From an uncultured Acidobacteriota bacterium (GTDB taxonomy: Bacteria > Acidobacteriota > JAQAZP01): a stretch of DNA of 64,000 nucleotides. The notes beneath the pieces are model-generated. The model searched no databases. It saw only the letters and a program-made list of their open reading frames with translations, and was not told the origin of the DNA. Shown one piece after another: positions 2,419 through 56,839 of the stretch. Numbering within the stretch: the stretch's first letter is position 1; every line of letters begins with the position of its first letter. The position numbers and the translations under genes are program-made. The stretch is from the NCBI GenBank assembly GCA_963836075.1, contig CAWIIB010000009.1, positions 832,001 through 896,000 on the forward strand. Direction: 5' to 3'.

Positions 2419-5029
2419 ATGGTTTCCACCAACCAGACACGGGGTATCCGTCTCCACGGGGTGTTCTTGCTGCTCCTGATCCTGTCGCTGGCCGTTTCTG
2501 CAAACGGGCCGGGGACTCACGCCGCCGAACTGTCCGCTGCACCACCCACCGGTTCGGGCATACTCCCCATTTTCGAGTTGCTTAGGCAGCCCACGCACCC
2601 CGCCCCGAACCTGCGGCCCGAGCTGGCACCGAAATCTGCCGGCGGCGACTGGCAGGCCCTGATCGACGCCACCTGGGGCGATGGAGACCCGGTGGAGCAG
2701 CAGGAGCTGTTCACCCTCTGGCGGGATACCCTCGACCATGACTTCTGCGCCTACATCAACCATGACGTGGACATCCCGGCGCTCTGCGACCCGCTGTGGG
2801 ACGAGCTGACCTCGGGCGACGTCAGCCGCGGCCGCTTCACGGCGATCATGCAGATTATCAACCGGGCGCACATGAACGCCCACACCCTCTTCTGGGACTA
2901 CCAGGTCAGCGGGACGACGCTGGAGCCGGGCGTGCCGCTGATGGGCTACTTCTCCGGCGGTTACAACAGCCACTTCGCCGCCTCTCTCACCGTGCACGAC
3001 GGCGAGGCCTTTGTCTATGACGTGGTGCCCGACCACCCGCTGGGCCTGGAACCGGGCGACGTCATCCTCGGCTATGACGGCGTGCCCTGGCTGGAGCTGC
3101 GCCAGCAGCTGCTCGACGCCCAGCTCCCCTACGTCGGCGTTCTGGGCACCTCACCGGCCGCGGAAGATCACTATGCCAGGATTTCCGTGGGGCGGAACTG
3201 GCACCTCTTCGACACCATCGACATCCGCAAGTACGGCAGCGGCGAGGTCCAGCACCTGCCCACAAGCCTGATGGGGGATCCCGGCGTGGGCTTCGGGCAC
3301 ACCGGTTTCGAATGGCTCGACGTGGGCATCCCCCTGCCCTCGGTGGACGACTTCATCACCTGGGGCGTGCTCGAGCGGGGGGATCTGCGGATCGGCTACA
3401 TCTACTGCCTGGCCTGGTCCACCGGCACGGGGACGGTGTTCCGCACGGCCTGTCTCGAGATGATGGACGACCCTGACCTGGACGGGCTGATCCTCGATTT
3501 CCGCACCAACTGGGGCGGAAGTATGTACGAGTGCAATGGCGGCCTGAGACTGCTCTTCAACCAGGACACCACCACCATCGATTTCGGCCAGCGCAACGAC
3601 CCGGACGACCATCTGTCCATGGGCGTCACCGGTTTTCCCGGATTCTACGAAATCCCCGGCGATGCCGGCTCATTTTTCAGCCACCCCATCGCCGTGCTGC
3701 TGGGGCCCGCCGCGGTGAGCGCCGGGGACCAGGTGGCCCTGCGCATGACCTACCACCCCATGGTCCGGACCTTTGGCAAGGCCACCTCCACCACCTTTGA
3801 CAGCCCGGTAGAGCTGCTCCTCGGCGCCGGCCCCGATTACATCGCGCGGTATTCGAAACACGACGCCTATCGCTGGGACTCGCCCGGCGAGTACCTGAAC
3901 CACGTGGGGTTTCCGGTGGACGAGGAGGTCTGGCTGGAGCCGGACGACGTGGTCCAGGGCATCGACACGGTGGTGGAACGGGCGGTGGCCTGGATCGCCG
4001 AAACCGAACCCATGGCCCGGCCGCTGGTGGTCACCGGGCCCGGGCCCGGCCCGGACAACGTCACCGACGTCCACACCTATTCCCCGGCGGACACCTCGGC
4101 TCCGGTATCTGTGATCGATGCCTATGGCGTGGACCGCTACGGGGTCAACGTGGCCGCGGCCGACGTGGACGGTGACGGGTACGACGAGATCCTCAGCGGC
4201 CCGGGGCCGGGGGCGGTCTTCGGGCCCCACGTGCGGGCCTTCGAAGCCGACGCCTCACCGCTGCCCGGGTTGAGTTTCATGGCCTACGGCACCAACAAGT
4301 TCGGGGTGCTCGTCGCCGGCGGGGACCTGGACGGTGACGGCCGGGACGAGATCGTCACCGGCGCCGGTCCCGGCGCCGTGTTCGGGCCGCACGTCAGGGG
4401 GTTCTCCTATGACGGGTCGTCGGTGACCCCGGTGCCGGGGGTGAGCTACTTTGCCTACGGGACACCCAAGTGGGGAGTCAATGTCTGTACCGGCGACCTG
4501 GACGGCGACGGCATGGACGAGATCGTCACCGGTGCGGGGCCCGGTGCGGTGTACGGGCCGCATGTCCGGGGCTGGAACGTGGACGGCGGTGCGGCGGATC
4601 CCGATGAGCCTGGTCAGTTTCATGGCCTACGGCACCAACCACTACGGGGTGAACCTGGCGCTGGGCGATATCGACGGCGACGGGTTCGACGAGATCATCA
4701 CCGGCCCCGGCCCCAGCCCGGTGTTCGGGCCGCACGTCCGCGGCTGGAACGTGGACGCCGGCCCGGTGGCACCGATCCCCGGGATCAGCTTTTTCGCCTT
4801 CAGCTATACAGAGTGGGGTGTCGGGGTGGGCGCCGGTGATTTCGACGGTGACGGCATCGACGAAATCCTTGCCGGTAATGGTCCTGCCACGTCCTACGCA
4901 CCGACGATCAAGGTTTTCTCCTGGGACGGCGCCACGCTGACCCTGGTCCACACCTTCACCGCCTATCCGGGCCAGGACCTGAGCCACGGCGTGAAGGCGA
5001 CCATCGGCGCTTTCGATTGGATGAACTGA
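2419..5029 (+). CDS. Secreted S41-family peptidase with C-terminal FG-GAP-like propeller module; frameshifted near 4597 (pseudogene or sequencing error)
   Basis: Signal peptide, PDZ-like segment (GLEPGDVILGYDG), LILDFRTNWGG and VSAGD S41 motifs; repeats continue in ORF 4451..5029 after one extra base (VDGGAA/IPMSLVSFMAYG). Confidence 0.8.
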
Positions 5030-5092
5030 TCAGATCCATGGCGGATGGTCGTATTTTCGGTATCCGTAGAGAAAAGACCGATAAGATAGCCG

Positions 5093-5144
5093 GGTAGCAT
5101 AATTGCCACCTTTTGCCGCAATTACAGGTAGCGTTATTGCAACC
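5093..5144 (+). promoter_or_regulatory. Tandem imperfect palindromes, probable enhancer (UAS) for a sigma54 activator
   Basis: GGTAGCATAATTGCCACC (5093-5110) and GGTAGCGTTATTGCAACC (5127-5144), about 80-130 bp upstream of a -24/-12 promoter. Confidence 0.65.
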
Positions 5145-6075: not shown

Positions 6076-6387
6076 ATGCCAGGAATGGATGGAACAGGAC
6101 CGATGGGCACTGGCCCCATTGGAGGAGGACGGGGACCCTGTGGACGCGGAATGGGACGCGGCAGGGGCATGGGCCAGGGCGCCGGAAACCGCTTCGGGCG
6201 GGGCACCGGGTTTGACCCCCGCATGAGAGGCAACTGGTTCGGCCGAGTCTGGGGTCAACAGTATCCCGGCTCCGAACCCATGGCTGACCGGGAGGCACTG
6301 CAGGAACAGGTTCGGATGCTGGAAAACGACCTTCAGGCCGTCAGACAGCAGCTGGACGCACTGGGGCCCGCAACAAAGGAAGAGTGA
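6076..6387 (+). CDS. DUF5320-family protein
   Basis: RBS GGAGG; MPGMDGTGPMGTGP...GRGPCG motif and C-terminal coiled coil (LQEQVRMLENDLQAVRQQLDAL). Confidence 0.8.
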   Translation: MPGMDGTGPMGTGPIGGGRGPCGRGMGRGRGMGQGAGNRFGRGTGFDPRMRGNWFGRVWGQQYPGSEPMADREALQEQVRMLENDLQAVRQQLDALGPATKEE

Positions 6388-6422
6388 AGGGTCGCCGCCC
6401 GGCAGCGGCCCGGAGAGAAGCC

Positions 6423-8170: not shown

Positions 8171-8532
8171 TGAAGATCGCAATCACCTCCAGCGGAACGA
8201 CGCTGGACGACGAAGTGGACCCGCGGTTCGGGCGCGCGAAGTATTTCCTGGTCTACGACACGGAAACCGGCGTGCTCCACGCGGTGGAGAACAGTCAGAA
8301 CCTGAACGCGGCCCAGGGCGCCGGCATCCAGGCCGGCCAGCTGGTGGCCGCCGCCGGCGTGACGGCTCTGCTAACCGGCAACTGCGGCCCCAAGGCCTTT
8401 CAGGTGCTGGGTCAGGCCGGAATCAAGGTCTATGTCAAGGTGGGAGGGCCGGTGCGCCAGGCCATCGAGGACTGGAAAGCTGGTACACTCACCGCGGCCG
8501 AAAACGCCAACGTGGAAGGACACTGGATGTAA
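8170..8532 (+). CDS. NifB/NifX-family protein, Orange protein (ORP)-like
   Basis: MKIAIT...VDPRFGRA...GAGIQA...TGNCGPKAF...ANVEGHW. Confidence 0.88.
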   Translation: MKIAITSSGTTLDDEVDPRFGRAKYFLVYDTETGVLHAVENSQNLNAAQGAGIQAGQLVAAAGVTALLTGNCGPKAFQVLGQAGIKVYVKVGGPVRQAIEDWKAGTLTAAENANVEGHWM

Positions 8533-8625
8533 CCAGGGGGTTTCGCGGGCCATCTGCCCCGAGGCGACCCTATTGAATCAACCGTCCCGGCAATCAGCGG
8601 GACCGTGAGACGAAGGAATCGATCG

Positions 8626-9876: not shown

Positions 9877-9878
9877 TA

Positions 9879-9968
9879 AAAATGGGGACTGTCCCCAGGG
9901 CGGGACAGTCCCCGATTTCCGTCCCCATTTTCTTTGTCCTTGGAAAGAGGTAACTGTCACCTCTTTCC
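9879..9968. repeat. REP-like palindrome cluster
   Basis: GGGGACTGTCCCC (9884-9896), GGGACAGTCCCC (9902-9913) and GGAAAGAGGTAACTGTCACCTCTTTCC (9942-9968). Confidence 0.75.
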
Positions 9969-9987
9969 CCGAGGAGGAATATCCGCC

Positions 9988-10889: not shown

Positions 10890-13800
10890 ATGTTCGCCAT
10901 ATTTGCCCGTTCCGCCCTGGCGGCCCTGACCCTGGTCATGGCGCTGGCCCTTTCCATCCCCGCGGCAGCCGACCAGAGCCCGACACCGCAGATCATCCCC
11001 GTGCAGGGGTCCGACACGCTGGTCAAACTCATGCCCGGCGGGGAAGCCTACCAGGTGAGCCTGGACAGCGGGGAGCAGTTCAGCCGCACCCTGCCGCGAC
11101 GGCACACCATCGCGCTGCACGGCGGCTCCTTCGACCCGCTCTCCGCTGACATCGGTGCCCGGAGTCTGGAGATCCCCGGGAAGCTGCGGGCCGCCACCGA
11201 CAGCAGGGCCTATATCGTGCAGTTCGTCACCCCGCCGCTGCCGGCCTACCGTGAAGCGATCCGCCGCCTGGGCGGCACCACCCACCAGTTCGTGCCCCAC
11301 CAGGCACTTCTGGTGCGGATCGACCCCGGCCGGCTGGCCGAGCTCACCGCCCTGCCCTTTGTGCGCTGGGCCGGCCCCTGGCACCCTGCTTTCCGGCTGG
11401 AGGGCGTGCTGGTGGAGATGCTCGCCGCGGAGAAAGCCGACCCGGCGCCCCGGCGCTACTCGATCATGGCCCTGGAACGGGGCCCGGCCATGCAGCAGTC
11501 GCTGGCCGAGCGGATCGAGCTGTCCGGCGGCACGGTGGAGTTGACCATCCCCGAGGGCTTCCGCCTGGAGGCCACCCTCACCCCGGACCAGCTGCTGCAG
11601 TTGACCCGCTCGGACGAAGTGCTGTTCATCGACCGCTGGAGCCCGCCGGAACCGGACATGAACAACGCCCGCGAAATCGGTGGGGCCAACCACATCGAGA
11701 CGGTGGCCGGCTACACCGGCCAGGGTGTGCGGGCCGAAGTGATGGACGGCGGGTGCCGTACCACTCACCAGGACTTCCAGAGCAATCCGCCGATCTACCA
11801 TGGGGCCACCTGGTCCGATTTCTATCACGGCACCCAGACCTTCGGTATCAACTTCGGCGACGGCACCGGCAACCCCAACGCCCGGGGCATGCTGCCCGAT
11901 GCCCAGGGGATCTTCGCCAGCTACAACCGCCTGACCAACCGCTACACCCACACCGCCCGGCTCGTCGATCCGGAAGGGGATTACCGGGCGGTGTTCCAGT
12001 CCAACAGCTGGGGAAACAGCACGACCACCACCTACGACACGTATTCAGCCGAGATTGACGACATCCTCTTTCTCAACGACATCGTGATCACCCAGTCCCA
12101 GAGCAATACGGGCAATCGCTCTTCACGGCCCCAGGCCTGGGCCAAGAACATCGTTTCGGTGGGCGCGGTCTACCATCACAACACCCTGACCCGCGACGAC
12201 GACGAGTGGTCGTACGGGGCCAGCATCGGCCCGGCCGCCGACGGCCGGATCAAGCCCGACCTCTGCCACTTCTACGACGACACCCTGACCACCGGGTATC
12301 CAGCGACACCTCGTACGACACCGGCTTCGGCGGCACCAGCGGCGCCACACCGATCACCGCCGGCCACTTCGGCCTGCTGTTCCAGATGTGGGCCGACGGC
12401 ATCTTCACCGGCAACCCGGGGGCGGGTGCGGATGTCTTCGACAGCCGGCCGCACATGACCACGGCCAAGGCGCTGATGATCAACACCGCCAGCCCCTACG
12501 ACTTCAGCGGCGACGACCACGACCTGACCCGGGTGCACCAGGGCTGGGGCCTGGCCCACGTGGGCGACCTCTACGACCAGGCCGAGGCGAGCAACTGGCG
12601 GCTGCCGCTGGTGATCGACGAGACCGAGGTGATCGAACCCTTCCAGGTTCACAGCTATGACCTGGCGGTGAGCGGGACGGGAGCCTGGTTCAAGGTGACC
12701 ATGGTCTACGCCGACCCCATGGGCAACCCGGGCGGCGGTCTGGCCCGGATCAACGACCTTTCGCTGCGGGTGACCGGGCCTGACGGCGAGTACTTCGGCA
12801 ACCGCGGTCTGCGCACCGGGAACTGGTCCGAAGATGTGGGTGACTTCCCCAACGACTTCGACACGGTGGAGAATGTCTTCCTCCAGAATCCGACCCCCGG
12901 CCAGTGGCGCATCGAGATCATGGCCGACGAGATCATCGAGGACGGTCACCCCGAGACCACTGAGCTGGACGCCGACTACGCGCTGGTGGTCACCGGCCCG
13001 GTGCAGATTGCCGGATTCGGCGCACCCACCATCCTGGTTGGACCGGGCTCCAAGCCGACCAACGCCACCGCGGTGCGCGGCTACTCCACCACCGGTGAAG
13101 CCAATCCCGATATCGATTTCGACGCCTACCCGACGGTGGAGGGCTACGGCACCAACGTGGCCGCCGGCGACATCGAGGGCAGCGGGTTCGACGTGATCGT
13201 CACCGGACCGGGGCCCGGGCCGGTGAACCCGCCGCTGGTGCGCGCCTTTGCCGGCGACGGCACCGCCATCCCCGGGATGGAGTTCCTGGCCTACGGCGTG
13301 GAATCCTACGGGGTCAACGTCGCCTGCGGCGACCTGGACGGCGACGGCATCGACGAGATGGTCACCGGTCCCGGACCGGGGGCGATCTTCGGCCCTCACG
13401 TCCGCGGCTGGAGTGCAGCCGGCGGCAGCGTTGCGTCGATGCCCGGCGTCAACTTCTTTGCCTACGGCACCCTGAAGTACGGCGCCAACGTGGCCTGCGC
13501 CGACATCGACGGTGACGGCATGGACGAGATCATCACCGGCGCCGGGCCGGGAGCGGTCTTCGGGCCCCACGTCCGCGGCTGGAACTATGACGGCGGCACC
13601 CTGGCCTCCATACCCGGGGTGAGCTACTTCGCCTACGGCACCCTCAAGTGGGGGGTCAACGTGGTTGGCGCCGACATCGACGGTGACGGCATCGACGAGA
13701 TGGTCACCGGCGCCGGGCCGGGAGCGGTCTTCGGGCCCCACGTGCGCGGCTGGAACTACGACGGTACCGCGCTGGCCTCGATCCCCGGGGTGAGCTTCTT

Positions 13801-14032
13801 TGCCTACGGCACCAACGAGTATGGGGTGCGGGTCTCCTGCGGCGACGTGGACGGCGACGGCATGGACGAGATCATCACCTCGCCCGGCCCGGGGCCGGCC
13901 TTTGCGGCGCACATCCGCGGCTGGAACTATGACGGGATGACCCTGGAGTCCATCCCCTCGCTCAACTTCCTCGCCTTCGCCGACACCAACTTCCGCCGCG
14001 GCGCCAGCACGGCGGTGGCCATGCTGGAGTAG
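10890..14032 (+). CDS. Secreted S8 subtilase with C-terminal FG-GAP-like propeller module; frameshifted near 12298
   Basis: Signal peptide; triad VMDGG / HGTQTFG / GTSGATP split over ORFs 10821..12458 and 12206..14032 by one missing base; five DxDGDG-type repeats at the C-terminus. Confidence 0.82.
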
Positions 14033-16611: not shown

Positions 16612-19146
16612 ATGAAAAGACTGCTGACGATTCTCCTGGTCCTGTCTCTTTCCTCCCTTTGCGCCAACGCGGCCACCATCCGCGTGCCGACAGACCAGCC
16701 CACCATCCAGGCCGGGATCAATGCGGCATCGGACGGCGACACGGTGCTGGTGGCCGACGGCACCTACACCGGCTATGGGAACTGGGACATCAGTTTCGCC
16801 GGCAAAGCGATCATCCTCCGTTCGGAGAACGGACCACAGAACTGCATCGTCGATGCCAATGGCAAGGACCAGGTGTTCCGCATCTTCCGGGGTGAAACCA
16901 GGGGCACTGTTGTCAGCGGGCTGAAGATCATCGGCGCGAATCATTGGGGGATTGAGATCATCGACTCATCCCCGACAATCCATAACTGCGTGGTGGAGGG
17001 CAACGCCAGGGGGGTCAGGATTGATACGGAGGTGTTTGATGTCACGGCCGCCCCCTCGATCCAGGGGACCCGTGTCCGCAACAACGCCCAACAGGGAATT
17101 AAAATCGAGAACTCTTTTGCTCGCATCATCGATTCAGTGATCAGCGATAACGGCATCCCCGGCTCCGCCGGATCGGGCGGGATTTACATTCATCAAAGTA
17201 CTCTCACCCTCGAGAACTGCATTGTCAAACGTAACTTCACCACGGACGACGGGGGAGGACTTTACGCCAGCGACGGAGGCTATGGGGGGGGAGGGTGTTC
17301 TGTGCGGCTGACGAACTGCACCTTTGTCGACAACATCGCCCAGGGCTACGGTGGCGGGCTCCGCAGTGGTGATGTGAGCACTGTCCGTATGGAGAACTGC
17401 ATCTTCACCGGGAACAGCGCCGGGACCGGTGACCAGCTGGCCTTCTTCAACTGGTATTACTGGCCAAGTGATATCTCGCTCCGCTACTGCGATGTGGTGG
17501 GGGAAATCTACGACGAGACCTGGGCAGATTTCGGCCCGGGAATGCTCTATGAGGACCCGCTCTTTGTCACCGGCCCGAAAGGTGCCTTCTACCTCAGCCA
17601 GACGGCCGCCGGTCAGGGTGTGAACAGCCCCTGTGTCGATGCCGGCGACCCGGAGAACCTGATGATCCGCGGCACCACCCGCACCGACTCGGTTCTGGAT
17701 GACGGGGTGGTGGACATGGGGTATCACTATCCGGATCCAGAAGAAGCGTTGTTGCCCGACACCCTGCTGCTCAGCGGCCCCGAATCACCGTACTACAATG
17801 CCTACAATGCCCGTGTCACCACCCCGGCGGTGGTCTTCAGCTTCAGCGGCATCGACCCGGATCATCAATCCCCGGATCTCAGCTACTCCTGGCGGATAAA
17901 CGACGAACCGTGGTCCGCCTGGTCCCTCAGGACCTGGGCCGCCATCGGCGGCCTGGACGACCAGAGCCCGCAGATGATGTTCGAGGTCCGGGCCCGCGAT
18001 CCCCAGGGGGATGTGGATCCCTCACCGGCACGCCAGGGCTTCTACTACTACGAACCATGGCAGCTCGATGAACTCACCCACCTGGTCATCGGACCAGGCC
18101 CCGGGCCACACAACCCCCCGCTGGTCCGCACCAGCCAGGGTGAGTGGCTGGCCTATTCGGTGATGCGCTACGGCGTCAACTTGGCCGCCGGTGATATCGA
18201 TGGTGACGGCCTCGACGAAGTGATCACCGGACCGGGGCCGGGAGCGGTCTTCGGCCCCCATGTCCGCTGTTTCCAGCCTGACGGCACAGTGGTACACAAT
18301 GCCGGCTTCATGGCCTATGGCACTCTCAAGTACGGCGTCAAGGTGGCGGCCGGTGACGTGGACGGTGACGGCTTCGACGAGATCATCACCGGGGCGGGGC
18401 CCGGTGCCGTCTTCGGCCCCCACGTGCGCGGCTGGAACTGGGACAACGGACCGGCCGCGGCCCCGATCTCCGGCATCAACTTCTTTGCCTACGGCACCCT
18501 GCGCTGGGGGGTCAACGTGGCCTGCGGCGACATCGACGGCGACGGGATCGACGAGATCATCACCGGCGCCGGCCCTGGTGTGGAGTTCAGGCCGCACGTG
18601 CGCGGCTGGAACTTCGACGGCAGCGGGACCTCCCCGGTGAGCGGCGCGAGCTACTTCGCTTTTCCTGCGCTTCAATGGGGGGTCACCGTGGCCTGCGGCG
18701 ACATCGACGGCGACGGGCGGGACGCGATCATCACCGGCCTCGGTCCCGGGTACGATTGCGCCGCCCGTGTTCGTGCCTGGGATTACAGCAATGGCGACAT
18801 CACGCTGGTGGAGCACTACGATTTCTTTGCCTACGACTACCCCCACTTCGGCACCGTGGTGGCCGCATCTACCCTCACCGGTGGCGGCACGGACGATATC
18901 GTCACCATGCCCGGCCCCGGTCCATTGTGCAGCGCCCGGCTGGAAGCCTGGCATTTGTATGGCAGCACCGTCCAGCCTCACGGAGTTCCCTGGGGCAGGG
19001 ATTTCCTCGACAGCTGGATGACCCACGGAGGAAGCGTGGCCGGCTCTAAAAAGGGTTGGACGTGGGGGGGCGACCAGCAGAATGCCATGTCGCTTCATCT
19101 GCCTGTCGGTGATGGGCCATATCGGGAGGAGCTCGAACATGAATAG
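16612..19146 (+). CDS. Secreted right-handed parallel beta-helix protein with Ig-like linker and FG-GAP-like C-terminal module
   Basis: Signal peptide; TIRVPxDQPTIQAGI..GDTVLVADGTY cap; xNCxxxxN..GGG helix repeats; five Ca-loop repeats. Confidence 0.8.
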   Translation: MKRLLTILLVLSLSSLCANAATIRVPTDQPTIQAGINAASDGDTVLVADGTYTGYGNWDISFAGKAIILRSENGPQNCIVDANGKDQVFRIFRGETRGTVVSGLKIIGANHWGIEIIDSSPTIHNCVVEGNARGVRIDTEVFDVTAAPSIQGTRVRNNAQQGIKIENSFARIIDSVISDNGIPGSAGSGGIYIHQSTLTLENCIVKRNFTTDDGGGLYASDGGYGGGGCSVRLTNCTFVDNIAQGYGGGLRSGDVSTVRMENCIFTGNSAGTGDQLAFFNWYYWPSDISLRYCDVVGEIYDETWADFGPGMLYEDPLFVTGPKGAFYLSQTAAGQGVNSPCVDAGDPENLMIRGTTRTDSVLDDGVVDMGYHYPDPEEALLPDTLLLSGPESPYYNAYNARVTTPAVVFSFSGIDPDHQSPDLSYSWRINDEPWSAWSLRTWAAIGGLDDQSPQMMFEVRARDPQGDVDPSPARQGFYYYEPWQLDELTHLVIGPGPGPHNPPLVRTSQGEWLAYSVMRYGVNLAAGDIDGDGLDEVITGPGPGAVFGPHVRCFQPDGTVVHNAGFMAYGTLKYGVKVAAGDVDGDGFDEIITGAGPGAVFGPHVRGWNWDNGPAAAPISGINFFAYGTLRWGVNVACGDIDGDGIDEIITGAGPGVEFRPHVRGWNFDGSGTSPVSGASYFAFPALQWGVTVACGDIDGDGRDAIITGLGPGYDCAARVRAWDYSNGDITLVEHYDFFAYDYPHFGTVVAASTLTGGGTDDIVTMPGPGPLCSARLEAWHLYGSTVQPHGVPWGRDFLDSWMTHGGSVAGSKKGWTWGGDQQNAMSLHLPVGDGPYREELEHE

Positions 19147-21571
19147 ACTGCTGACGATCCTCGTCGCCCTGGCGCTCTCCTCCCTCTGCGCTTCCGCCGC
19201 CACCATCCGCGTGCCGGCGGACCAGCCCACCATCCAGGCCGGCATCGACGCGGCGGTGGACGGTGACACGGTGCTGCTGGCCGACGGCCGCTACACCGGC
19301 GAGGGGAACCGGGGCATCGAGTTTCACGGCAAGGCGATCACCCTCCGCTCGGAGAACGGCCCGGTGAACTGCATCGTCGACGCGGAGTTCGTGGAGGAGT
19401 GGGACGAGGACGTCGTCCTCTCCTTCAGTGAGAACGAAGGCCGGAACACGGTGGTGGACGGGCTGACAATTACCGGGGGATTCAGGTGGGGAATCTACGT
19501 TAGCGATCCCGCCCTTCAACCCTCTCCGATCATTCGCAACTGCATCATTACCGGGAACAACAACGGCCTCGGTCTCGGTTACGGCTGACCGCTGGTGGAG
19601 ACCACCCGGGTGGTGGAGAACTTCGGCAATGGCATCTCTTCCAGTGGCGACAGTCACATCGTCGACTGTGTGATCAAGGACAACGGTGGCTCCGGGATCA
19701 AATGTTACGGATCCGGCAGGCTGGTGGAAAACTGTCTGATCGCGGAGAACGGGTCCGACGGCCTGGGCGGCGGGATCGAGAGCAGGTGGGGCGAGTCGAT
19801 CTTTCGCAACTGCACCATCGTCGGCAACAGCGCCGAAACCGGGGGCGGCCTGCTCATCTGGCGCGACGGATCAATCATCCTGGAGAACTGCATCGTGGCC
19901 GGCAACAGCGCCAGCGACCTGGGCGACCAGTGCGCCCTGCTGGTGGACTACTACAGTTACTACACCTATGCCGGCAGCCTGACCCTCAACCACAGCGACG
20001 TGCACGGGGAGATCCATGTCGATCCCTGGTGCGACCTCTTCACCGGTCCGGGGGTGATCGACGAGGACCCGCTCCTTGTCAGCATCCCCTGGGGCGGCTA
20101 CTACCTGAGCCAGGTGGCCGCCGGTCAGGGTGCGGACAGCCCCTGTGTCGACAGCGGCAACCCGCAAACGGAGATGGTCCACGGCACCACCCGCACCGAC
20201 TGGGCCCAGGACGACGGAACCGTCGACATGGGCTACCACTACCGGGACCCGGACGAGGGCCCCCTGCCCGACACGATCGTCACCAGCGGCCCAAAGCACT
20301 GTTCAGGGGTGAGGGTCCCGGCGGTCACCTTCGCTTTCACCAGCACAGACGAGGAGTATCCCCCCTCGGATCTCGACTACTCCTGGCGGCTGAACGACGG
20401 GCCCTGGTCCGACTGGTCATCCAACACCTGGATCGCGTTCACCGAAACGGTGCTGGAATCCTGGAACCACTTCGAGGTGCGGGCCCGTGATCCCGAGGGG
20501 GACATCGACCCGATCCCAGCGGAGCAGATTTTTTCTCAGCACGACAACTGGCCCGAAGAGCGGTATACCCGTCTCGCCGTGGGGCCCGGCCCCGGGCCGT
20601 TCAACCCCCCGGTGGTGCGGACCAGCCTCGATCAGTGGCTGGCCTACGGGGTGATGCGCTACGGGGTGAACCTGGCCGCCGGCAACATCGACGGTGACGG
20701 CCCCGACGAGCTGATCACCGGGCCGGGGCCGGGGGCGGTGTTCGGCCCCCATGTCCGCTGTTTCCGCGGCGACGGCACGGTGATCAGCGGCGCCGGCTTC
20801 CTGGCCTACGGCACCAACAAGTATGGCGTCATCGTGGCCGCCGGCGACGTGGAGGGGGACGGCTACGACGAGATCATCACCGGCGCGGGCCCGGGTGCCG
20901 TCTTCGGGCCCCACGTCCGGGGCTGGAACTGGGACGGCGGCCCGGCGGTCCAGCCGATGAACGGCATCAGCTTCTTTGCCTACGGCACCCTGACGTGGGG
21001 GGTCAACGTGGCCTGCGGCGACATCGACGGCGACGGCCGGGACGAGATCATCACCGGCGCCGGGCCCGGCGCGGTATTCGGCCCCCACGTCCGCGGCTGG
21101 AGCTACGACGACGGCGAAACCGCACCCATGGCCGGAACCAGCTTCTTTGCCTATGACACGCCCAGTTTCGGGGTCAACGTGGCCTGCGGCGACCTGGATG
21201 CCGACGGCATCGACGAGATCATCACCGGCGCCGGACCGGGCCCCACCTTCGCTTCCCACGTCCGGGCCTGGCGTTATGACGGCGCAACCGTATTCAGAAT
21301 GCCGCACGTCGACTACATCGCCTACGAGGACCTGCGCTTCGGTGTGGTGGTGAGCGCCGCCGACGTGGACGGGGACGGCCGGGACGAGATCCTCACCATG
21401 CCCGGGCCGGGGCCCGTGAACCAGGCCTGGCTGCGGGCCTGGGACGTGGAAAGCGGCACGGTATCCATGACCGGCTACCCCTGGGACTGGAACTTCCTCG
21501 ATGACTGGCTGACCCATGGCGGCCACGTGGCCGGGTCGAAGAACGGCTGGGCGCCGCCTGAAAACAAGTAG
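19139..21571 (+). pseudogene. Tandem paralog of 16612..19146 interrupted by an in-frame TGA at 19586-19588
   Basis: ORFs 19082..19588 and 19595..21571 are in the same frame, separated only by TGA CCG CTG; same domain order as the upstream paralog. Confidence 0.75.
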
Positions 21572-49415: not shown

Positions 49416-50936
49416 TTACGGCGCCACCCCGGTCACCGTACAAGCTGCTGTATCCGTGTCCCCTGTCGCCGGGTACGGCGGCTGGTTGTAAGGGGCCGGA
49501 GTTACGTCCTCAGCCACCAGGGTGAAGACGTTGTCACCCGCCAGCGACCCGAGAGCCGGGATGTTCTGGACCCAGGAGGTGAGATAGCTGTCGCTGGCAC
49601 CCACGTTGGTGTAACCGGCACGCCAGTTGTTGTATCCCTGGCCGCCGGCCAGTGTGACATTGATCTTCCCCGCGATCCGTCGTGTTAACCCAGGGTAGAG
49701 ATTTTCCAGTTCAACAAACATGGTGCTCTGAAAGGGGAGTGTGCCGCTGGACGGCACACAGCCGAACGAAGCGGACAAAGTGATCCCTGCCGGTGAGTGG
49801 TAGCCCATGTCCGCCTGCCCCGTGTCACCGAAGCCATCGCTGCGCGTGGCCACGTCATCGAGGCAGACGACACCGGTTGGCGGCGATGCGCAGATACTCG
49901 CCGCCAGGTCGCTGCCCGCATCGACGCAGGGACTGTCCGCGGCCTGGCCCGCGGCAATCTGGGAAAGGTAGTAGTCGCCGCCAGGGCCGCTGACGAAGAG
50001 CGGGTCGAGGTCGATATTCCCTGTGCCGGGATACACGCCCCCAATATCGCAATAGTCGATCGTGCCGTAGTAGGCATAGATATCGCTTGAGAAATTTCCC
50101 CAGATTATCGAGTCGCGCAGCGTGATGATCGACTCTTCGTTGGCGTAGATGCCGGTGGCATAACCGCCGCCCACATTGTCCACGATGGTACAGCCGATGA
50201 TCGTCGCGTGGCACTGGCCGTAGTAAGAGCCGTAGAGGTAGATGGCGCCGCTCTGCCCATACAGCCAATTGTAACTGTTGTTGCCGTAAATCAGGTTGTT
50301 GAAGATCAGCGGCTCGGCGACATCATAGACCATGATGGCGCCGCTGTATTCACCGGTGTTGTAAGAGATCTCGTTGGAGATGATCAGCGGAGATCCAGAC
50401 ACGAACATCGCGCCGCCAAGGTCGAAACCCTCGTTGTTGGTGATCACGTTGCCGATGATGGTAGGCGATGCACCACAATAGATCCCGGCCACCGAATCGC
50501 TGAGAAAATTAGTGATGGTGAAACCACGGAGAACCGAATCGGGGCCCTCCCCGCTCTCGAACCAGAATGCGATGTGCTCTTCGACCCCCCATTCCCCGAG
50601 CCCGTCAAGGATGCAACTGGCCGGCCCGTTGGCCGAAGCGACAGTGATCGCCTTGCCATGGAAGTCGACCTCCCAGTTGCCGTCCCCGCTGTACGTGCCG
50701 TCGGCCACCAGCACCGTGTCGCCGTTCAGTGCGGCATTGATCCCTTCCTGGATGGCATCGTAAGGATGGTCGAGGGACCCATCCTCCAGCGGATCACTGA
50801 CCGTCGGATCGCCCGGGCCAGGGTCGTTCGGTGCGTCGTCGTCCACGTGGATGGTGGTCTGTGCGTGGAGCGTTGCGGTGAAGAGCATCATCGTCAGAGC
50901 GATGACAAGAACTGACACTGGAACACGGGATTTCAT
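49416..50936 (-). CDS. Secreted parallel beta-helix protein with conserved ~120-aa C-terminal domain (tandem copy 4)
   Basis: Signal peptide; VDDDAP.DPGPGDP..SDPLEDGS.DHPYDAIQEGI cap; helix repeats; ends DVTPAPYNQPPY...CTVTGVAP. Confidence 0.8.
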   Translation of the reverse strand: MKSRVPVSVLVIALTMMLFTATLHAQTTIHVDDDAPNDPGPGDPTVSDPLEDGSLDHPYDAIQEGINAALNGDTVLVADGTYSGDGNWEVDFHGKAITVASANGPASCILDGLGEWGVEEHIAFWFESGEGPDSVLRGFTITNFLSDSVAGIYCGASPTIIGNVITNNEGFDLGGAMFVSGSPLIISNEISYNTGEYSGAIMVYDVAEPLIFNNLIYGNNSYNWLYGQSGAIYLYGSYYGQCHATIIGCTIVDNVGGGYATGIYANEESIITLRDSIIWGNFSSDIYAYYGTIDYCDIGGVYPGTGNIDLDPLFVSGPGGDYYLSQIAAGQAADSPCVDAGSDLAASICASPPTGVVCLDDVATRSDGFGDTGQADMGYHSPAGITLSASFGCVPSSGTLPFQSTMFVELENLYPGLTRRIAGKINVTLAGGQGYNNWRAGYTNVGASDSYLTSWVQNIPALGSLAGDNVFTLVAEDVTPAPYNQPPYPATGDTDTAACTVTGVAP

Positions 50937-50955: not shown

Positions 50956-52881
50956 TCATGGGTTGACCCCAGTCACCGTACACCATGCCCTGTCAGTGCT
51001 GCCCGACGGCGAGTAGGGCGGCTGGTTGTACGGCGCCGGTGTCACGTCGGCCACCACCAGGGTGAACTTGTTCTCACCGATCACCGACCCGGTGGCCGGG
51101 ATCTGCTGGCTCCAGTTAAAGGCGAATGCCTCGCCCGGATCGAGCACCAGGTAGCCGGCCCGCCAGCTGGGGTAGTAGCTCCCGTTGGCCAGTGCCACAT
51201 TGAGCTTGCCCGAGGCCTGCCGAAACTCGCCGGCCAGCTCGTTCTGCATGCCCACCGAGATGAGCGTGCCAAAGGGGACCGTCCCCTCTGATGGCGTACA
51301 GGAGAGGCTCGCACCGATCCGGCTGAAGACCGGGTGGTGGGCGCCCATGTCGGCCGTGCCCTGGTCGTTGATCTCGTCGGTGCGGGTGGAGCGCTGGCTG
51401 AGGCAGATGGTGCCGTCGAACGGCTTCCAGCAGACTGCATCCGCCGGAGCCGAACCCGTGTCGAGGCAGGGGCTGTCGGTTGCCTGGCCCGCGGCAACCT
51501 GCGAGAGGTAGAAGTCACCATTGGGGCCGCTGACAAAGAGCGGGTCGGTGTCGATATTCCCACCGCCAAGGTGAATCGTGCTGCCGGCCTGCACATGAAT
51601 GGAGGCCTGCCCGCCTTCCACGTCAGTATGGTCGATGCTCAGCGAACTCGGTGCCGTTACGGTGCCCACAAAGCAGGCGGGGGCGCCCAGCAGGGCACTA
51701 TTGCCCCAGAGGATCGAGTCGCGAATGGTGATGTGCGCATCGCGGAACTGGCTGGTCCCGCCACCCCAGGCCTGGGTGCTGTTCTGGTGGAGCGTGCATG
51801 CCCCGACAAAGACCGTTGACATGTAGCAGTGTATGGCACCGCCATAGTCGATTGCCTGGTTGCCGGTGATAAGGGTATCCATTACCTCGCAGGTGAGGTC
51901 CGGGCTGCATTCGGTGAAACAGAGGCCTCCACCCTTGATCTCGGCGCTGTTCCCGTCAAAGATGCACGATGCAAAAAGCAGGGACGAGCGTCCCACGCAA
52001 GCGCCTCCGCCATCCAGGGAGGCCGAGTTGCCGGAGAACCGGCAGTTGAGGATTGATGCTTTCTCGCACTCCCAGACCCGCAGGCCCCCTCCGCTACCGT
52101 CCTCCGTGCTGTTGTCAACAAACACCGTGTCTCTGATCATCACATCCGCCGAAGTGCCGATATTGATCCCTGCTCCGCCCGGTACCCCGACCCCAACAAA
52201 AATCGTGTTGCCCTCGAACCGGCAGCGGTCGATCAACACCGTTCCGCAACCGGAAATGAGCAGCCCCCCGCCATACGCGGTGGTGTTGTTGCCCTCGAAG
52301 CGACAGTCGACAATGGTGGGGTTGCCGTTGGTGCAGCGCATTCCCCCCCCGGCATCATTCGCATGGCAGTCACGAACTACGCAATCCCTGACCACCGGCG
52401 ACGTGCCACGGCAACTGATACCGCCGGACGTCTGGGTGTAGGAGGTGGTGTACCCGTTTTGTACCGTGAACCCTTCCAGCACCGTGTCGGGGCCTTCCCC
52501 CGAAATGATATAGAAGCCGGTGTGCAGGTCGAACTCACTTGCCTCACAGTCCACCACGCAGGTGTCCGGACCGTTGAGTGAACGGACCGTGATCGCCTTG
52601 CCCAGGAAGTCGATGTCACGGTTGCCCTGGCCGGTGTAGAGACCGGGGCCCACGATGACTTCGTCCCCGCCCGCCGCTGCGTCGATCCCCTCCTGGATGG
52701 CATCGTACGGATGGTCGAGGGATCCGTCCTCCAGGGGGTCGCTGACCAGCGGGTCGCCCGGGCCCGGATCGCCCGGTGCGGCGTCGTCCACGTAGATGGT
52801 GGCCTGGGCGTGCAGGGGGGCGGTGAACGGCAGCAGCGCGAGCAAGAGGAGCGCTACCAGAACCGGGATACGGGATTTCAT
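50956..52881 (-). CDS. Secreted parallel beta-helix protein with conserved C-terminal domain (tandem copy 3)
   Basis: Same cap and tail; Cys-rich xCxFxGN..GGG repeats. Confidence 0.8.
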   Translation of the reverse strand: MKSRIPVLVALLLLALLPFTAPLHAQATIYVDDAAPGDPGPGDPLVSDPLEDGSLDHPYDAIQEGIDAAAGGDEVIVGPGLYTGQGNRDIDFLGKAITVRSLNGPDTCVVDCEASEFDLHTGFYIISGEGPDTVLEGFTVQNGYTTSYTQTSGGISCRGTSPVVRDCVVRDCHANDAGGGMRCTNGNPTIVDCRFEGNNTTAYGGGLLISGCGTVLIDRCRFEGNTIFVGVGVPGGAGINIGTSADVMIRDTVFVDNSTEDGSGGGLRVWECEKASILNCRFSGNSASLDGGGACVGRSSLLFASCIFDGNSAEIKGGGLCFTECSPDLTCEVMDTLITGNQAIDYGGAIHCYMSTVFVGACTLHQNSTQAWGGGTSQFRDAHITIRDSILWGNSALLGAPACFVGTVTAPSSLSIDHTDVEGGQASIHVQAGSTIHLGGGNIDTDPLFVSGPNGDFYLSQVAAGQATDSPCLDTGSAPADAVCWKPFDGTICLSQRSTRTDEINDQGTADMGAHHPVFSRIGASLSCTPSEGTVPFGTLISVGMQNELAGEFRQASGKLNVALANGSYYPSWRAGYLVLDPGEAFAFNWSQQIPATGSVIGENKFTLVVADVTPAPYNQPPYSPSGSTDRAWCTVTGVNP

Positions 52882-52928: not shown

Positions 52929-54624
52929 TCATGGCGCCACGCCGGTCACGGTGCAGGCGGCAGCGGCGCTGTCCCCGGCCGGGGGATAGGGCGGCTGGTT
53001 GTAAGGCGGCGGGGTCACGTCCGCCACGGTGAACAGGAAGCCGGTCTCACCGACCAGCGTCCTCAGGTTTGGTATGGCCTGCCACCAGCTGGTGGTGCGG
53101 GTCTGGCCGGCCGGGACGTTCTGCCAGCCCCGCCGCCAGGATGAGTCGGTACTGGCCGCCGGCCAGGGTGACATCGATCTTGTGCTGCACGCGCCGTGTC
53201 TGGCCGGCATAGGTGTTGGTCAGCGAGAGCGTGAACTGGCTGGAGAAGGGCAGCGTGCCGGCGGCCGGACTGCAGGCCATGGATGCCGCCACGGTTCCCG
53301 GCGCGGCCGGGTAGTGGTAGCCAAGGTCGGCAATGCCGGTATCGGCCACACCGCTGGTGCGGGTGGTGAGGGTGTCCAGGCAGAGGGTTTCGTCCCCGCC
53401 GCCGGTGCAGATGTTCATGGCCAGGTCGCTTCCCGCGTCGAGGCCGGGGCTGTCCTCGGCCTGGCCGTCCGCGGTCTGGCTCAGGTAGTGCTCTCCATGG
53501 GGACCGGCAATGAACAGCGGGTCGCCGGTGAGCACCGGGCTGGCCTGGATCAGGGTCATGTGGCCCACCCGCACGGTGGAGCTGGCGTCCCTGATCAGAC
53601 AGTGGTCCAGCGTGGCCGTGACCGCGCCGGAGATGCTGGGGCCCTCGCTGCCCAGCCAGAGGTTTGCCCCTTCGCCGGCCAGGTTGTGGGCAACGATGCA
53701 GTCGACGAGATCCACCGTGCAGGTTTCAAGTGAACCGGAGACCGCCAGGCAGATCCCGCCACCGTCGCCGTCAACAGTGCCGGCGCTGTTTCCCGCAATG
53801 GTGCTGTTGCGCAGAGTGGTCACCCCGCTGTCGGTGTCGAGGTCCAGGCCGTAGAGCCCGCCGCCGCTGAGATCGGCATGGTTGCCCGCCAGCAGGTTGT
53901 TGGCCAGGGACGCCGGTTCGGCGGAGATGAGGCAGATCCCGCCGCCATGCTCAGCGGCAAGGTTGCCGGTGATCCGGTTGTGATCGATTCGCGGGCTGCC
54001 CCCCACCGCCAGCAAGCCGCCGCCCTGGGTGGCGCTGTTTCCCGAAAGTGTGTTGCCCGTGATCCGCGCCGCGGAATCGAGGCAGCAGATCCCGGCGCCG
54101 CCGGTACAGCCGGTGACCACGTTGCCGATGATGGTGGGCGAACCGCCGTCGATGTAGATGCCGTGGGGATGGCCGGGCGCCCCCTCGTCATCCGAGGCCC
54201 CGGTGATGGTCAGCCCCTGGAGGACGGAGGCCGCCACCTCGCCGCTGACAAACTCGAACCCGAAACGGTCCAGGCCGGAGACCCCCTCGCAGTCCACCGT
54301 GCAGTTCTGCGGCCCGTTGGCCGACCGCACGGTGATCTTCCTGCCCAGGAAGCTCAGGTCATGGTTGCCGGCGCCGGCATACCGCCCGTCGGCCAGCAGC
54401 ACGACGCTGCCGGTGGCCGCGGCGTCCATCGCCTCCTGGATGGCGTCATAGGGGTGGTCCGGCGAACCGTCCTCCAGCGGGTCGCTGATGGCGGGGTCGC
54501 CCGGGCCGGGGTCGCCGGGCGCATCGTCGTCCACGTGGATGGTGGTCTGGGCCTGGAGCGGGACAGCGAAGAGCAGCAGCGCAAGCACCACGAGTAATGC
54601 TCGTTCGATGGTGCTGAGTTTCAT
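52929..54624 (-). CDS. Secreted parallel beta-helix protein (tandem copy 2), frameshifted near 53150 inside the C-terminal domain
   Basis: ORF 53047..54624 leaves frame after LAGGQY; the tail DSSWRRGWQNV...CTVTGVAP continues in ORF 52929..53210 after one extra base. Confidence 0.78.
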
Positions 54625-54640
54625 TCCGGACCTCGTTTCC

Positions 54641-56839
54641 TCAAGGCATCCAACCGGTCACCGTGCAGGCGGCCGTGTCGGTATCCCCCGACGGCAGGTA
54701 GGGGGGCAGGTTGTAGGGCGGCGGCGTTACGTCGAGCACGGTGAGCAGGAAATCGTTGTCCCCGGCCAGCGGCTCGAGGGCCGGCAGGTTCTGTCCCCAG
54801 AAAAACCCGAACGATTCTCCGGGCTGGACGTTCTGCCACCCGCGCCGCCAGGAGGAATGGTCCTGGCCGCCGGCCAGGGTGACATCCATCTGGTACTGGA
54901 TGCGCCGGGCCAGCTTCCGGTAATCGTTGGCCATCGACACCGTGAACTGGCTGACAAAGGGCAGGGCACCGCCGGCCGGCTGGCAGCTCAGTTCACAGGA
55001 GATCGTTTTCTCGATCGGGTAGTGGTAGCCCATGTCCACCTGCCCCGTATCCCCCACCCGGTCGGTTCTGGTGGTCAGGGTGGAGGCCGGCCATTCGATC
55101 AGGGTCAGCGTGTCCAGGTCGAAATCCACCGGCACCATCACCGTGTCCGCCGGTTCGCTGCCGGTGTCCACACAGGGGCTGTCCACCGGCTGTCCGGCGG
55201 CCGTACTGGCGAGATTGTGCTCACCCACCAGGCCGACGGTGAAGAGCGGATCGGCGTCGATGATGCTCTCCCCGTACGCCCCGCCCTGGACATCGCAGTA
55301 GGACGCTGCCGCCGGGGCATAGGCCAGGTGGTACTGGTTCGGCATATTGCCCCAAATGACCGTGTCGGTGACGGTGGTGCTCCAGTAGACCTCACTGTTC
55401 ACATATATTCCACCACCGTCGGCGGCCTGGTTGCCGGCAATGGTATTGAGCCGGTAGTCGATGTAATCGGCCTCCTGGCCGATCCCGCCGCCCTCTCCGT
55501 CGGCGGAGTTTCCGACGATCAGGTTGTTGACAACCTGCGAGGACCATCCCGACGTATAGATACCGCCACCCCGGCCAGCGGCATGGTTTCGCTCGATCCT
55601 GTTGCCGGCAACGGTCCCGTGATACGAAGAGAAGGCCAGCCCGCCGCCGTTGCCCCCGGCGCTGTTCTCCTCGATGCCGTTGTTCAGAACACTCCAGCTG
55701 GCGCTGCTGATGAAGATGGCGCCGCCGGTAATGGTGGCGTGGTTGCCGGAGAAGAGGTTGTCTTTTATAACCGAGCCGCCCGACGCGCAATTGACTCCGG
55801 CGCCTCTTTCCGCCGCGTTGTCGATGAAGGTGTTGCCGATCACATAGACTTCCGAATTATACGGGGCGCCGGAGTGGTCGTATCTCGAATAGATGCAGCC
55901 TTCCGTATTCCCGGTGAACTGGTTGTCCCGAATAAGGGACGGGCTTTTATCGAACTGCATACAGAGCACACCGTTGTCGGTGAACGTATTGCCGATCACG
56001 TCTGTTTCGGCGTGGACGATGTAGATAACGGCGCTTCCCGAATCATGTCCTGAGAAAATGTTGCCGGTGATGGATGCCCGCTTTTGTTCATCCCACATCC
56101 AGCCATATATGGCACAGCCGGACTCCTGCGTGCCGGTGTAGTCGATGATGTTGGCAATGAATTCATTGTCCACGATCACCACTTGAGCATCCTGATAGTA
56201 GATGGCGCCACCGCCGGTATAGGCATGATTGTCGATGAAAACGTTGCCGATGATCTCGGCCTCCGTATCCTCACGACACTGGATCGCCCCCCCATCCTCG
56301 CCCGGGCCGCACCAGTTGTCGATGAAGATGTTTCCCCTGATGGTGGCCGGGCCCTGAATGACCCTGATGGCTCCGCCGCCGCTCCATGTCCCGCTATCCG
56401 GAGACCAGCCACCGGTGATGGTGAATCCCTCCACCGTACTTCTCGCCCCGTAATTAGCGAAATCGAATGCCCGGTGCGGGTCCGCCTCGCCTCCCTGGCA
56501 ATCGATGATGCAGTTTTCCGGGCCGTTTTCGGATTTGATGGTGACCCGCCTCTCGCGCTGGACGCCAATGTCCCGGTTCCCCTCGCCGGTGTACAGGCCG
56601 TCTCTCACCAGCACCGTGTCGCCGCCCCACCCGATCGCCATGTACCCTTCCATGATGGAATCAAAGGGATGATCCGTCGAACCGTCCTCCAGCGGATCGC
56701 TGATGGCGGGGTCGCCGGGGCCGGGGTCGCCCGGCGCGTCGTCGTCCACATACCAGGTGCTCTGGGCGTGGAGGGGGACAGCGCAGAGCAGAATCGTGAG
56801 CAGAAGCAATACGGCTGTTCCGTCTGTTCGCATGATCAA
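54641..56839 (-). CDS. Secreted parallel beta-helix protein with conserved C-terminal domain (tandem copy 1)
   Basis: Same cap; many IxGNxFxxN..GGAI repeats; ends DVTPPPYNLPPY...CTVTGWMP. Confidence 0.8.
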   Translation of the reverse strand: MIMRTDGTAVLLLLTILLCAVPLHAQSTWYVDDDAPGDPGPGDPAISDPLEDGSTDHPFDSIMEGYMAIGWGGDTVLVRDGLYTGEGNRDIGVQRERRVTIKSENGPENCIIDCQGGEADPHRAFDFANYGARSTVEGFTITGGWSPDSGTWSGGGAIRVIQGPATIRGNIFIDNWCGPGEDGGAIQCREDTEAEIIGNVFIDNHAYTGGGAIYYQDAQVVIVDNEFIANIIDYTGTQESGCAIYGWMWDEQKRASITGNIFSGHDSGSAVIYIVHAETDVIGNTFTDNGVLCMQFDKSPSLIRDNQFTGNTEGCIYSRYDHSGAPYNSEVYVIGNTFIDNAAERGAGVNCASGGSVIKDNLFSGNHATITGGAIFISSASWSVLNNGIEENSAGGNGGGLAFSSYHGTVAGNRIERNHAAGRGGGIYTSGWSSQVVNNLIVGNSADGEGGGIGQEADYIDYRLNTIAGNQAADGGGIYVNSEVYWSTTVTDTVIWGNMPNQYHLAYAPAAASYCDVQGGAYGESIIDADPLFTVGLVGEHNLASTAAGQPVDSPCVDTGSEPADTVMVPVDFDLDTLTLIEWPASTLTTRTDRVGDTGQVDMGYHYPIEKTISCELSCQPAGGALPFVSQFTVSMANDYRKLARRIQYQMDVTLAGGQDHSSWRRGWQNVQPGESFGFFWGQNLPALEPLAGDNDFLLTVLDVTPPPYNLPPYLPSGDTDTAACTVTGWMP

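Follow-up and report, generated by a model that had tools for sequence, protein, structure and literature searches.

We analyzed a 64,000-nucleotide stretch of DNA (hereafter the window) from an uncultured Acidobacteriota bacterium, located at positions 832,001 to 896,000 of contig CAWIIB010000009.1 in a 6.23-Mb, 10-contig genome assembly that is 94.7% complete. It carries ten genes whose products join varied cargo domains to one of two C-terminal modules, which we call tails A and B. The preliminary description of the window had reported them as ten secreted proteins with signal-peptide-like starts, and all ten were confirmed at their positions, each beginning with a basic stretch followed by a hydrophobic stretch and an alanine-rich site. 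In the whole genome, the two tails close around 310 genes, exclude each other within a protein, and alternate on closely related cargoes. We propose, tentatively and at a probability a little short of even, that they are modules that localize their cargo by binding and act after export.

The placement of the tails is remarkably strict. A hidden Markov model (HMM) of A was built from four A tails and run over all six-frame open reading frames (ORFs) of the genome. It identified 188 near-full copies in 187 ORFs and another 35 partial ones, mostly pieces of frameshifted genes. Among the near-full copies, 154 end exactly at the stop codon, 32 end at most nine residues away, and two are internal, one between two duplicated cargo units and the other in a protein that also bears a terminal copy. 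The HMM of B, likewise built from four tails and used with a cut-off of at least 330 bits, matched 130 ORFs, with a distance to the stop of at most 5 residues in 95, 6 to 20 in 28, 21 to 50 in 5, and more in 2. Counted on crude gene calls (n = 4946), 183 genes have A, 127 have B, and none has both, together around 6% of the calls. When the last 110 residues of all proteins were compared, A and B made up the two largest similarity clusters. The tailed genes are spread throughout the genome: 108 of the 310 adjoin another tailed gene and the longest run has nine. Signal-peptide-like starts, identified with a simple home-made rule, were found in 124 of 154 proteins with A and 81 of 108 with B, against 607 of 2618 control ORFs of at least 450 amino acids (aa). 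Tails that stand alone are scarce, i.e., two proteins consist of a signal peptide and a diverged copy of A, and none of a signal peptide and B. The expectation of many strictly C-terminal copies on signal-peptide proteins was thus borne out (186 of 188 for A, 123 of 130 for B), and the modules are neither placed at arbitrary internal positions nor confined to a few recent paralogues.

The same cargo may carry either tail. In the beta-helix proteins, the cap DPLF..GP.G.YLSQ.AAGQ...SPC.D.G...TRTD...DMGYHY precedes A or B at nearly the same junction. The passage from cargo to tail is abrupt, within a few residues of this cap and at the same point of it for either tail, and no conserved linker or cleavage motif was seen at the junctions. 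In the genome, 13 cargo clusters hold both tails. Single-linkage clustering puts 168 cargoes in one cluster, and we relied on coverage-filtered pairs instead. By this approach, 136 cargoes are homologous, at a coverage of at least 60%, to a cargo bearing the other tail. The top cross-tail pairs, one of them in tandem, are 71-77% identical over their whole length, and one pair reaches 94% identity over 368 residues. The closest homologue bears the other tail in 33 of the 111 cargoes that have homologues of both kinds. Because of the clusters with both tails, the close cross-tail pairs, and the nearest paralogues with the other tail, we conclude that, at the level of sequence comparison, tail exchange is frequent. 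The combinatorial construction put forward in the preliminary description holds.

The cargoes include proteases, arylsulfotransferases, pyrroloquinoline quinone (PQQ) dehydrogenases, phosphatases, CotH, deiminases, lipases, and many non-enzymatic propellers, and are too varied for one shared substrate. The earlier idea of a polymer-degrading arsenal is too narrow for this list. Public relatives with A and with B overlap in their Pfam cargo families: Beta_helix, NosD, Peptidase_S8, GSDH, BNR_2, and PAD_porph, as well as Peptidase_C25, CotH+LTD, DUF362, Sortilin-Vps10, Trypsin_2, and Peptidase_C1. Some tail preference is seen among the public matches, with arylsulfotransferases in 10 of 120 A and none of 120 B matches, and S8 peptidases in 2 of 120 and 8 of 120, respectively. 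Some cargoes with A or B belong to NCBIfam choice-of-anchor families (B, D, J, Z) or to myxosortase- or rhombosortase-dependent families, including sortase-dependent M36 families, and are thus of kinds that rely on sorting tags in other organisms.

A third module, dockerin, occupies the same slot. Among ten full-length paralogues of tailed cargo that lack A and B, four end in a dockerin, three of which were confirmed with Pfam. In the genome, Dockerin_1 gave eight matches above its cut-off, seven of them at most 14 residues from the stop; no A or B tail matched it, the dockerins being in other proteins. The five dockerin-tailed proteins scanned with Pfam have a beta-helix (two), Peptidase_M1, an FG-GAP/PQQ propeller, and a GDSL lipase as cargo, all of them families that also occur with A or B. 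The dockerin-cohesin system (PF00404/PF00963) is similar to A and B as a C-terminal, non-catalytic module of varied secreted enzymes that takes the same slot on homologous cargo. It differs in its unrelated sequence and size, and in number, with 7 dockerin tails against around 310 A and B tails. The sequences thus indicate that this organism can place a genuine docking module at the C-terminus of its secreted enzymes.

The genome has four cohesin domains, one of which is fused to a secretin of the type II secretion system (T2SS) type. This protein of 842 aa (C1:2169994-2172519, minus strand) comprises TPR, Secretin_N, and Secretin domains, an acidic linker, and the cohesin at its end. It is encoded in a T2SS-like operon with T2SS-F, T2SS-E, PilM, PilN, two unassigned genes, and two prepilin-type genes. 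A second secretin in the genome is PilQ-like, with AMIN, STN, N0, and Secretin domains. A literature search at the level of titles and abstracts found no report of a secretin-cohesin fusion. We considered this protein as a specific partner of A and B and rejected it, since relatives of its cohesin were found in 24 of the 41 genomes of the phylum, often in frames of 750-970 aa, and do not follow the distribution of the tails. Judging from these sequence matches, it is of older origin and does not serve A or B as their partner. The seven dockerin-tailed enzymes themselves could dock on the cohesin of the secretin.

Module A is the C-terminal block of 120-122 aa of genes 21706, 49416, 50956, 52929, and 54641 (named by their first position in the window). 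The four intact copies of the window are 50-59% identical to the first one, and an alignment of 24 diverse A tails has a mean column identity of 50%. Its most conserved stretch is D-V-T-P-A-P-Y-N-Q-P-P-Y-P-P-S-G, with an almost invariant proline-rich loop DVTPAPYNQPPYPPSG. The end residues are near-fixed as ...TG.AP (e.g., ...CTVTGVAP), the chain nearly always ending in proline. Two cysteines, one near the first strand and one in the last, occur together in 14 of the 24 aligned tails, are both missing in 5, and are unpaired in 5. In 89 public A sequences, C499 never varies and C393 is kept in at least 90%. This conserved pair suggests a disulfide and hence an extracytoplasmic domain. The AlphaFold2 model of A, made with the tail of gene 49416, which was also the query of the public protein search, is a sandwich of the immunoglobulin-like (Ig-like) type with 8 strands in 121 aa (mean predicted local distance difference test, pLDDT, 96.1).

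None of the 24 A tails matched any Pfam or NCBIfam model, even at an E-value (E) of 10. A profile search for sequence relatives in the PDB gave nothing under E 0.7, and the best score in the ESM Atlas was 0.78, in the range of noise. Sequence searches thus place A as an uncatalogued domain family. The closest structure is RbmA, a scaffolding protein of the Vibrio cholerae biofilm (4be5, 4kkq; Z 12.5, root-mean-square deviation 2.5 over 105 residues, template modelling (TM) score 0.71), followed by the C-terminal barrels of transglutaminases, the Ig domain of AlkC, and MG, CARDB, and PKD domains. RbmA is similar to A as an extracellular matrix-retention protein made of sandwiches resembling fibronectin type III domains. 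It differs in that it is 8-9% identical, stands alone with two domains, and is not a tail, and other Ig-like domains score almost equally well.

Module B is the C-terminal block of around 330 aa of genes 2419, 10890, 16612, 19139, and 28246. All five proteins match Pfam FG-GAP (PF01839; 30.9-63.7 bits, cut-off 22.1) and FG-GAP_3 (PF13517; 36.6-157.6 bits, cut-off 26.9). With the tail of gene 28246, which was also the query for the public protein searches, AlphaFold2 gave a model with 24 strands, i.e., six blades of four strands (pLDDT 91.7, predicted TM-score 0.92). Each B tail has six GPGPG...VR repeats and the motif GPGAVFGPHVRGW recurs in each blade. The consensus of five of the six blades has GDxDGDGxDE, the DxDxDG calcium-loop motif, from which calcium binding may be predicted. 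The end residues of B are also near-fixed, often ...VAAGRF. The top Foldseek match is chain 9oee_A of UmbA4 (E 1.2e-8, TMq 0.60); lectins of the PVL type that bind N-acetylglucosamine come next (2bwm; E 1.5e-6, TMq 0.48), then designed and Kelch six-blade propellers and integrin alpha. In a search with its sequence profile, B matched integrin alpha-4 and alpha-V (E 1e-4 to 1e-3), and the ESM Atlas gave generic FG-GAP/VCBS clusters only.

On the predicted structure, B would be a six-bladed FG-GAP propeller of the lectin/integrin type, in other words a new and very uniform six-bladed subfamily of a known domain that is employed as a tail. It shares with the UmbA4 propeller (9oee), the PVL-type lectins (2bwm), and integrin alpha the FG-GAP repeats, the propeller fold, the DxDxDG loops, and the C-terminal position. 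It is 14-17% identical to them, and may be a binding domain as they are. Integrin alpha and PVL propellers have seven blades, against the six predicted for B. The preliminary description had called B FG-GAP-like, and had named a match to a characterized binding domain among the findings that would speak against its proposal. B does match such a family, and the proposal of a new sorting system is weakened for this tail. The source on UmbA (PMC13274773) describes a C-terminal propeller of UmbA4 that binds a teichuronic-acid-like surface polymer of target cells, and interchangeable C-terminal lectin domains among UmbA proteins (propellers with 5, 6, or 7 blades, ricin-type domains, and a family of Ig-like ones). 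UmbA resembles A and B in the exchange of C-terminal domains; it has many lectins on one scaffold, whereas B is one near-uniform family on around 130 cargoes.

The two tails have the same narrow range in the phylum. Among 41 genomes (this one, its relatives, and the phylum), the three genomes with A were also the three with B, and they belong to one genus. When the phylum was sampled evenly (401 genomes, 227 genera), each tail was again found in three genomes and a single genus (at E 1e-5 for A and 1e-60 for B, with the best 11 candidates per genome scored for A and the best 5 for B). A word-index search of 5.8 billion public proteins returned 217 proteins with A within the length band and 4478 with B among 8000 scored candidates. 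In 1.84 billion representatives, the B profile had 14564 matches at E of at most 1e-3, 8054 at 1e-10, and 2369 at 1e-30. The public matches listed end at most 5 residues from the C-terminus in 117 of 120 cases for A, 97 of 120 for B, and 103 of 132 for further B representatives; B matches that lie farther away still close with the B end motif. None of the 372 public matches listed has both tails. One public B-tailed match is labelled by its source as an Acidobacteriota metagenome-assembled genome. The S8 gene of the window is found in sequencing runs labelled freshwater sediment, salt marsh, and marine sediment; no RNA run was among those listed. In four sediment or salt-marsh runs, the summed contig depth over the B repeats of this gene (13305-13934) rises 10- to 100-fold, with many joints between B repeat units; this fits many B-type paralogues or relatives, depth not being a copy number.

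A co-distributed translocon, sortase-like enzyme, or scaffold would have supported the preliminary proposal, and none was found in the genome and phylum searches. The core of the type IX secretion system (T9SS) gave no match in the genome (SprA, TIGR04189; SprA_N, PF14349; GldM; GldL; Por_Secre_tail/TIGR04183), in searches that had no positive control genome. A PorV_fam match was rejected as a T9SS part, being a FadL/TodX protein with 48 bits against a cut-off of 90. A C25 peptidase with an A tail was likewise rejected as a PorU-like sortase, with 22.5 bits against the PorU cut-off of 420. FGE-sulfatase cargo scores for GldK/GldJ in 2 of 89 cases, and the same two proteins score for PvdO, EgtB, and SenA, which we read as a generic FGE-sulfatase likeness. 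Exosortase (PF09721) was found in none of the three genomes of the genus and in 13 of the 38 other genomes of the phylum (12 of 37 without one unpublished genome), and PEP_CTERM has one marginal match in the genome. The tags of the PEP-CTERM/exosortase, MYXO-CTERM, GlyGly-CTERM, and LPXTG systems are similar to A and B in that one cargo family may bear alternative C-terminal tags. They are motifs of around 25 aa with a membrane helix and a dedicated protease, whereas A and B are folded soluble domains, and no hydrophobic helix was found at the ends of either.

A screen for families enriched next to tailed genes revealed no translocon-like family. The top family, with 14 of its 17 members adjoining tailed genes, was rejected as a helper, since it consists of N-terminal pieces of frameshifted tailed genes. 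The other enriched neighbors are extracytoplasmic function (ECF) sigma and anti-sigma factors, kinases, VWA proteins, and a membrane-anchored SGNH hydrolase family. In a small ECF sigma family, 5 of 6 members are at most two genes from a tailed gene, mostly directly upstream and divergent (e.g., C1:1469345-1469932, C8:24326-24913, C8:6116-6703, C9:3108364-3108939); anti-sigma (zf-HC2) and kinase families are likewise enriched near tailed genes. Subsets of the tailed secretome could thus have dedicated regulation. The membrane-anchored family has six members with a GDSL/SGNH-like motif recognized by eye, 5 of which are at most two genes from a tailed gene (e.g., C9:1295051-1296442, C1:1828858-1829937, C9:2440353-2441498), and it might modify a surface polymer. 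A search of titles and abstracts on Acidobacteriota FG-GAP, choice-of-anchor, and type IX topics found nothing on the A and B tails.

Each of the around 310 genes encodes a Sec-exported protein that combines a variable cargo with exactly one folded C-terminal module. If both tails are non-catalytic modules that localize by binding, the protein would fold in the periplasm once exported by Sec. It would then probably cross the outer membrane through a T2SS-like secretin and apparatus, and not through a tail-specific translocon. B would be a multivalent, calcium-dependent propeller of the lectin type holding its cargo on a glycan polymer of the envelope or matrix, and A an Ig-like adhesion module that holds its cargo on a second ligand through the proline-rich loop. 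The choice of the tail would set the final place of the enzyme. Between paralogues, tails are exchanged at the cargo/tail junction, where one 3' module replaces the other. The homologous dockerin-tailed cargoes and the cohesins are, by analogy, a precedent within the genome in favor of docking. We infer binding and its ligands or receptors, together with the export route and the two destinations, from what is observed, namely the anatomy of the proteins, the number and position of the tails, their mutual exclusion and swapping, the predicted folds, the phyletic range, and the systems detected or not.

That binding itself, and any ligand or receptor of A or B, have to be inferred is one of several points that weigh against this proposal. 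The strict terminal placement, the near-fixed ends, and the scarcity of stand-alone tails are more typical of sorting signals, binding modules being usually found internally or N-terminally too, and it is unusual to find a binding domain on 6% of all genes. The structural matches are not specific: 109 chains match A at Z of at least 8, which are generic fold matches, and the TM-scores of B range from 0.48 to 0.63, with Kelch and designed six-blade propellers scoring similarly and a weak match to the lectin. The signal-peptide counts depend on our home-made rule, and the contrast is weaker with gene starts set by coding score (85 of 155 with A, 60 of 123 with B, 685 of 2265 others), although we think that such starts often clip the signal peptide. 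Finally, the absence of a T9SS is not proven, since only the PorV_fam search had a positive control and the genome is incomplete.

Several of these points would be expected if A and B were sorting signals for an undescribed outer-membrane translocon or sortase-like enzyme, analogous to the T9SS and its C-terminal domains (CTDs), with two destinations and possibly removal of the tail. We regard this as doubtful, yet a serious contender. The tails are strictly C-terminal and mutually exclusive, their last residues are near-fixed, and they are borne by hundreds of unrelated cargoes that include the T9SS-typical C25, S8, and PAD_porph. The type A CTD (PF18962/TIGR04183) is a folded Ig-like domain, as A is predicted to be, and is similar to A in being strictly C-terminal, present in dozens to hundreds of copies per genome, and attached to unrelated signal-peptide cargo including C25 and S8. 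The identical phyletic range of A and B fits one shared lineage-specific system in a genus without the exosortase detected elsewhere in the phylum (one of the positive genomes being unpublished), and absence searches made without controls keep the explanation alive. However, no T9SS core part was detected, the only PorV_fam match being the FadL/TodX protein, and this system is to our knowledge restricted to Bacteroidota and allies. A (121 aa, 8 strands) does not match the CTD in sequence, as the lack of any Pfam or NCBIfam match at E 10 in the 24 tails also indicates. The best 50 structural matches listed for A by Foldseek and by VIA-align include no T9SS CTD, though a similarity may exist. 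We know of no precedent for a 330-aa propeller as a secretion signal, the neighbor screen gave only frameshift fragments and regulators, and dockerin, a binding module, fills the same slot on homologous cargo. We consider it unlikely that A and B are two signal classes of a previously unknown, lineage-confined outer-membrane system for sorting and attachment, made of parts unrelated to those of the T9SS, in which the tail would license transport and pick the surface, and 3' swaps would re-address enzymes.

It is also possible, but quite improbable in our opinion, that the tails target foreign surfaces such as particles, polymers, or other cells, in the manner of carbohydrate-binding modules or lectins, without a role in retention on the producer. 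The top Foldseek match of B is UmbA4, whose C-terminal propeller binds a glycopolymer of target cells, in a family whose tails are interchangeable; the presence of the S8 gene in sediment and salt-marsh runs fits a particle-attached life, and many cargoes are hydrolases. One would then expect the tails to diversify with their targets, yet only two tail families, around 50-60% identical among paralogues, serve more than 300 cargoes, among which PQQ dehydrogenases, arylsulfotransferases, and phosphatases have no common polymer substrate. A cellulosome-like assembly, in which the tails would be protein-protein docking modules for a scaffold or an outer-membrane receptor, or A would bind B, seems very unlikely. 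It would be in line with the dockerin tails, the cohesins, and the cohesin-secretin fusion of the genome, and the exposed proline-rich loop, the most conserved part of A, could be a ligand. Yet no protein with repeated candidate receptor domains turned up in analyses that did not look for one systematically, the distribution of the secretin-type cohesin differs from that of the tails, and binding of A to B would only give heterodimers of two enzymes.

Five of the ten genes of the window carry B and are on the plus strand. The S41 peptidase gene (2419..5029, tail from 4024; Peptidase_S41 39.9 bits, FG-GAP 48.4 bits) has a frameshift in the record between around 4600 and 4700, after which the frame runs on to the stop at 5027-5029. 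The S8 subtilase gene (10890..14032, tail 13031-14029) lacks one C behind 12298 in the record. The other three encode a right-handed beta-helix with a spacer domain of around 110 aa before the tail (16612..19146, tail 18082-19143; 587.6 bits with the B HMM), a beta-helix with an in-frame TGA at 19586-19588 (19139..21571, tail 20573-21568), and an FG-GAP/VCBS propeller matched by the B-tail Pfam models and the HMM (28246..30378, tail 29380-30375). A is found on one plus-strand gene, which encodes an FG-GAP/VCBS propeller (21706..23637, tail 23275-23634; 203 bits with the A HMM), and on four minus-strand genes that encode beta-helices and also match this HMM. These are 49416..50936 (tail 49419-49784), 50956..52881 (PMP-repeat, tail 50959-51321), 52929..54624 (tail 52932-53295), and 54641..56839 (PMP-repeat, tail 54644-55006; 213 bits). 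The third one has a frameshift within the tail, at around 53100, and is split in two ORF pieces that each match one half of the A HMM.

Hence, four of the ten genes are interrupted in the record, three by frameshifts and one by the in-frame TGA. The S8 break, the only one of the four checked against public runs, is an assembly error, because the extra C behind 12298 is present in the contigs of all four runs compared, where it restores the frame, and because two sister genomes have an orthologue with an uninterrupted frame, of 1081 and 1055 aa, respectively. Further frameshifts of this record may share this type of error. The TGA at 19586-19588 occurs at the same place in the orthologue of a sister genome, which is 87% identical and coding on both sides. 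The genome encodes tRNA-SeC, and the window has SelD (TIGR00476, 325 bits) and a relative of the VPGUxxT thioredoxin-like (seleno)proteins (198 bits, under the cut-off of 275); these two genes occupy, in one order or the other, 60228-61190 and 30507-31904 of the minus strand. A hairpin resembling a selenocysteine insertion sequence was not found after the TGA, where RNA folding is no better than in shuffled sequences (z -0.64). The TGA could encode selenocysteine or be read through in this secreted protein, or it could be a nonsense mutation of old date that the two genomes share.

The remaining genes of the window are housekeeping ones, with an ATP synthase operon, ParAB, SelD, HtrA-like proteases, and sulfatases, and no obvious secretion or sorting machinery was seen among them. 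Just upstream of the S8 gene, a cluster at 6384-10689 (plus strand) encodes two MinD/ParA-type NTPases with 4Fe-4S inserts, two Nitro_FeMo-Co (DUF-type) proteins, a fusion with an Mrp/NUBPL-type ATPase, and DUF1847. In the comparison of protein ends across the genome, the third-largest cluster after A and B has 51 proteins, with a related cluster of 9, and an end motif like L-(R/K)-A-L-G-Y-(I/M/L)-x. A sulfatase of the window (14050-16512, plus strand) ends in the same way, with ...RALGYME.

That varied cargoes share a C-terminal tag is not new in itself. What is new here is the alternation of A, B, and dockerin on close paralogues, and a scale of around 6% of the genes. With the same enzymes encoded in both tail versions, the genome amounts to a natural experiment in how proteins are addressed. 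As anchors, the tails would define two extracellular compartments of a common sediment bacterium and provide two compact, well-folding tags for surface display; as sorting signals, they would point to an undescribed secretion route. Module A merits a family model of its own, and hundreds of "hypothetical proteins" of sediment metagenomes may become readable as exported tailed enzymes.

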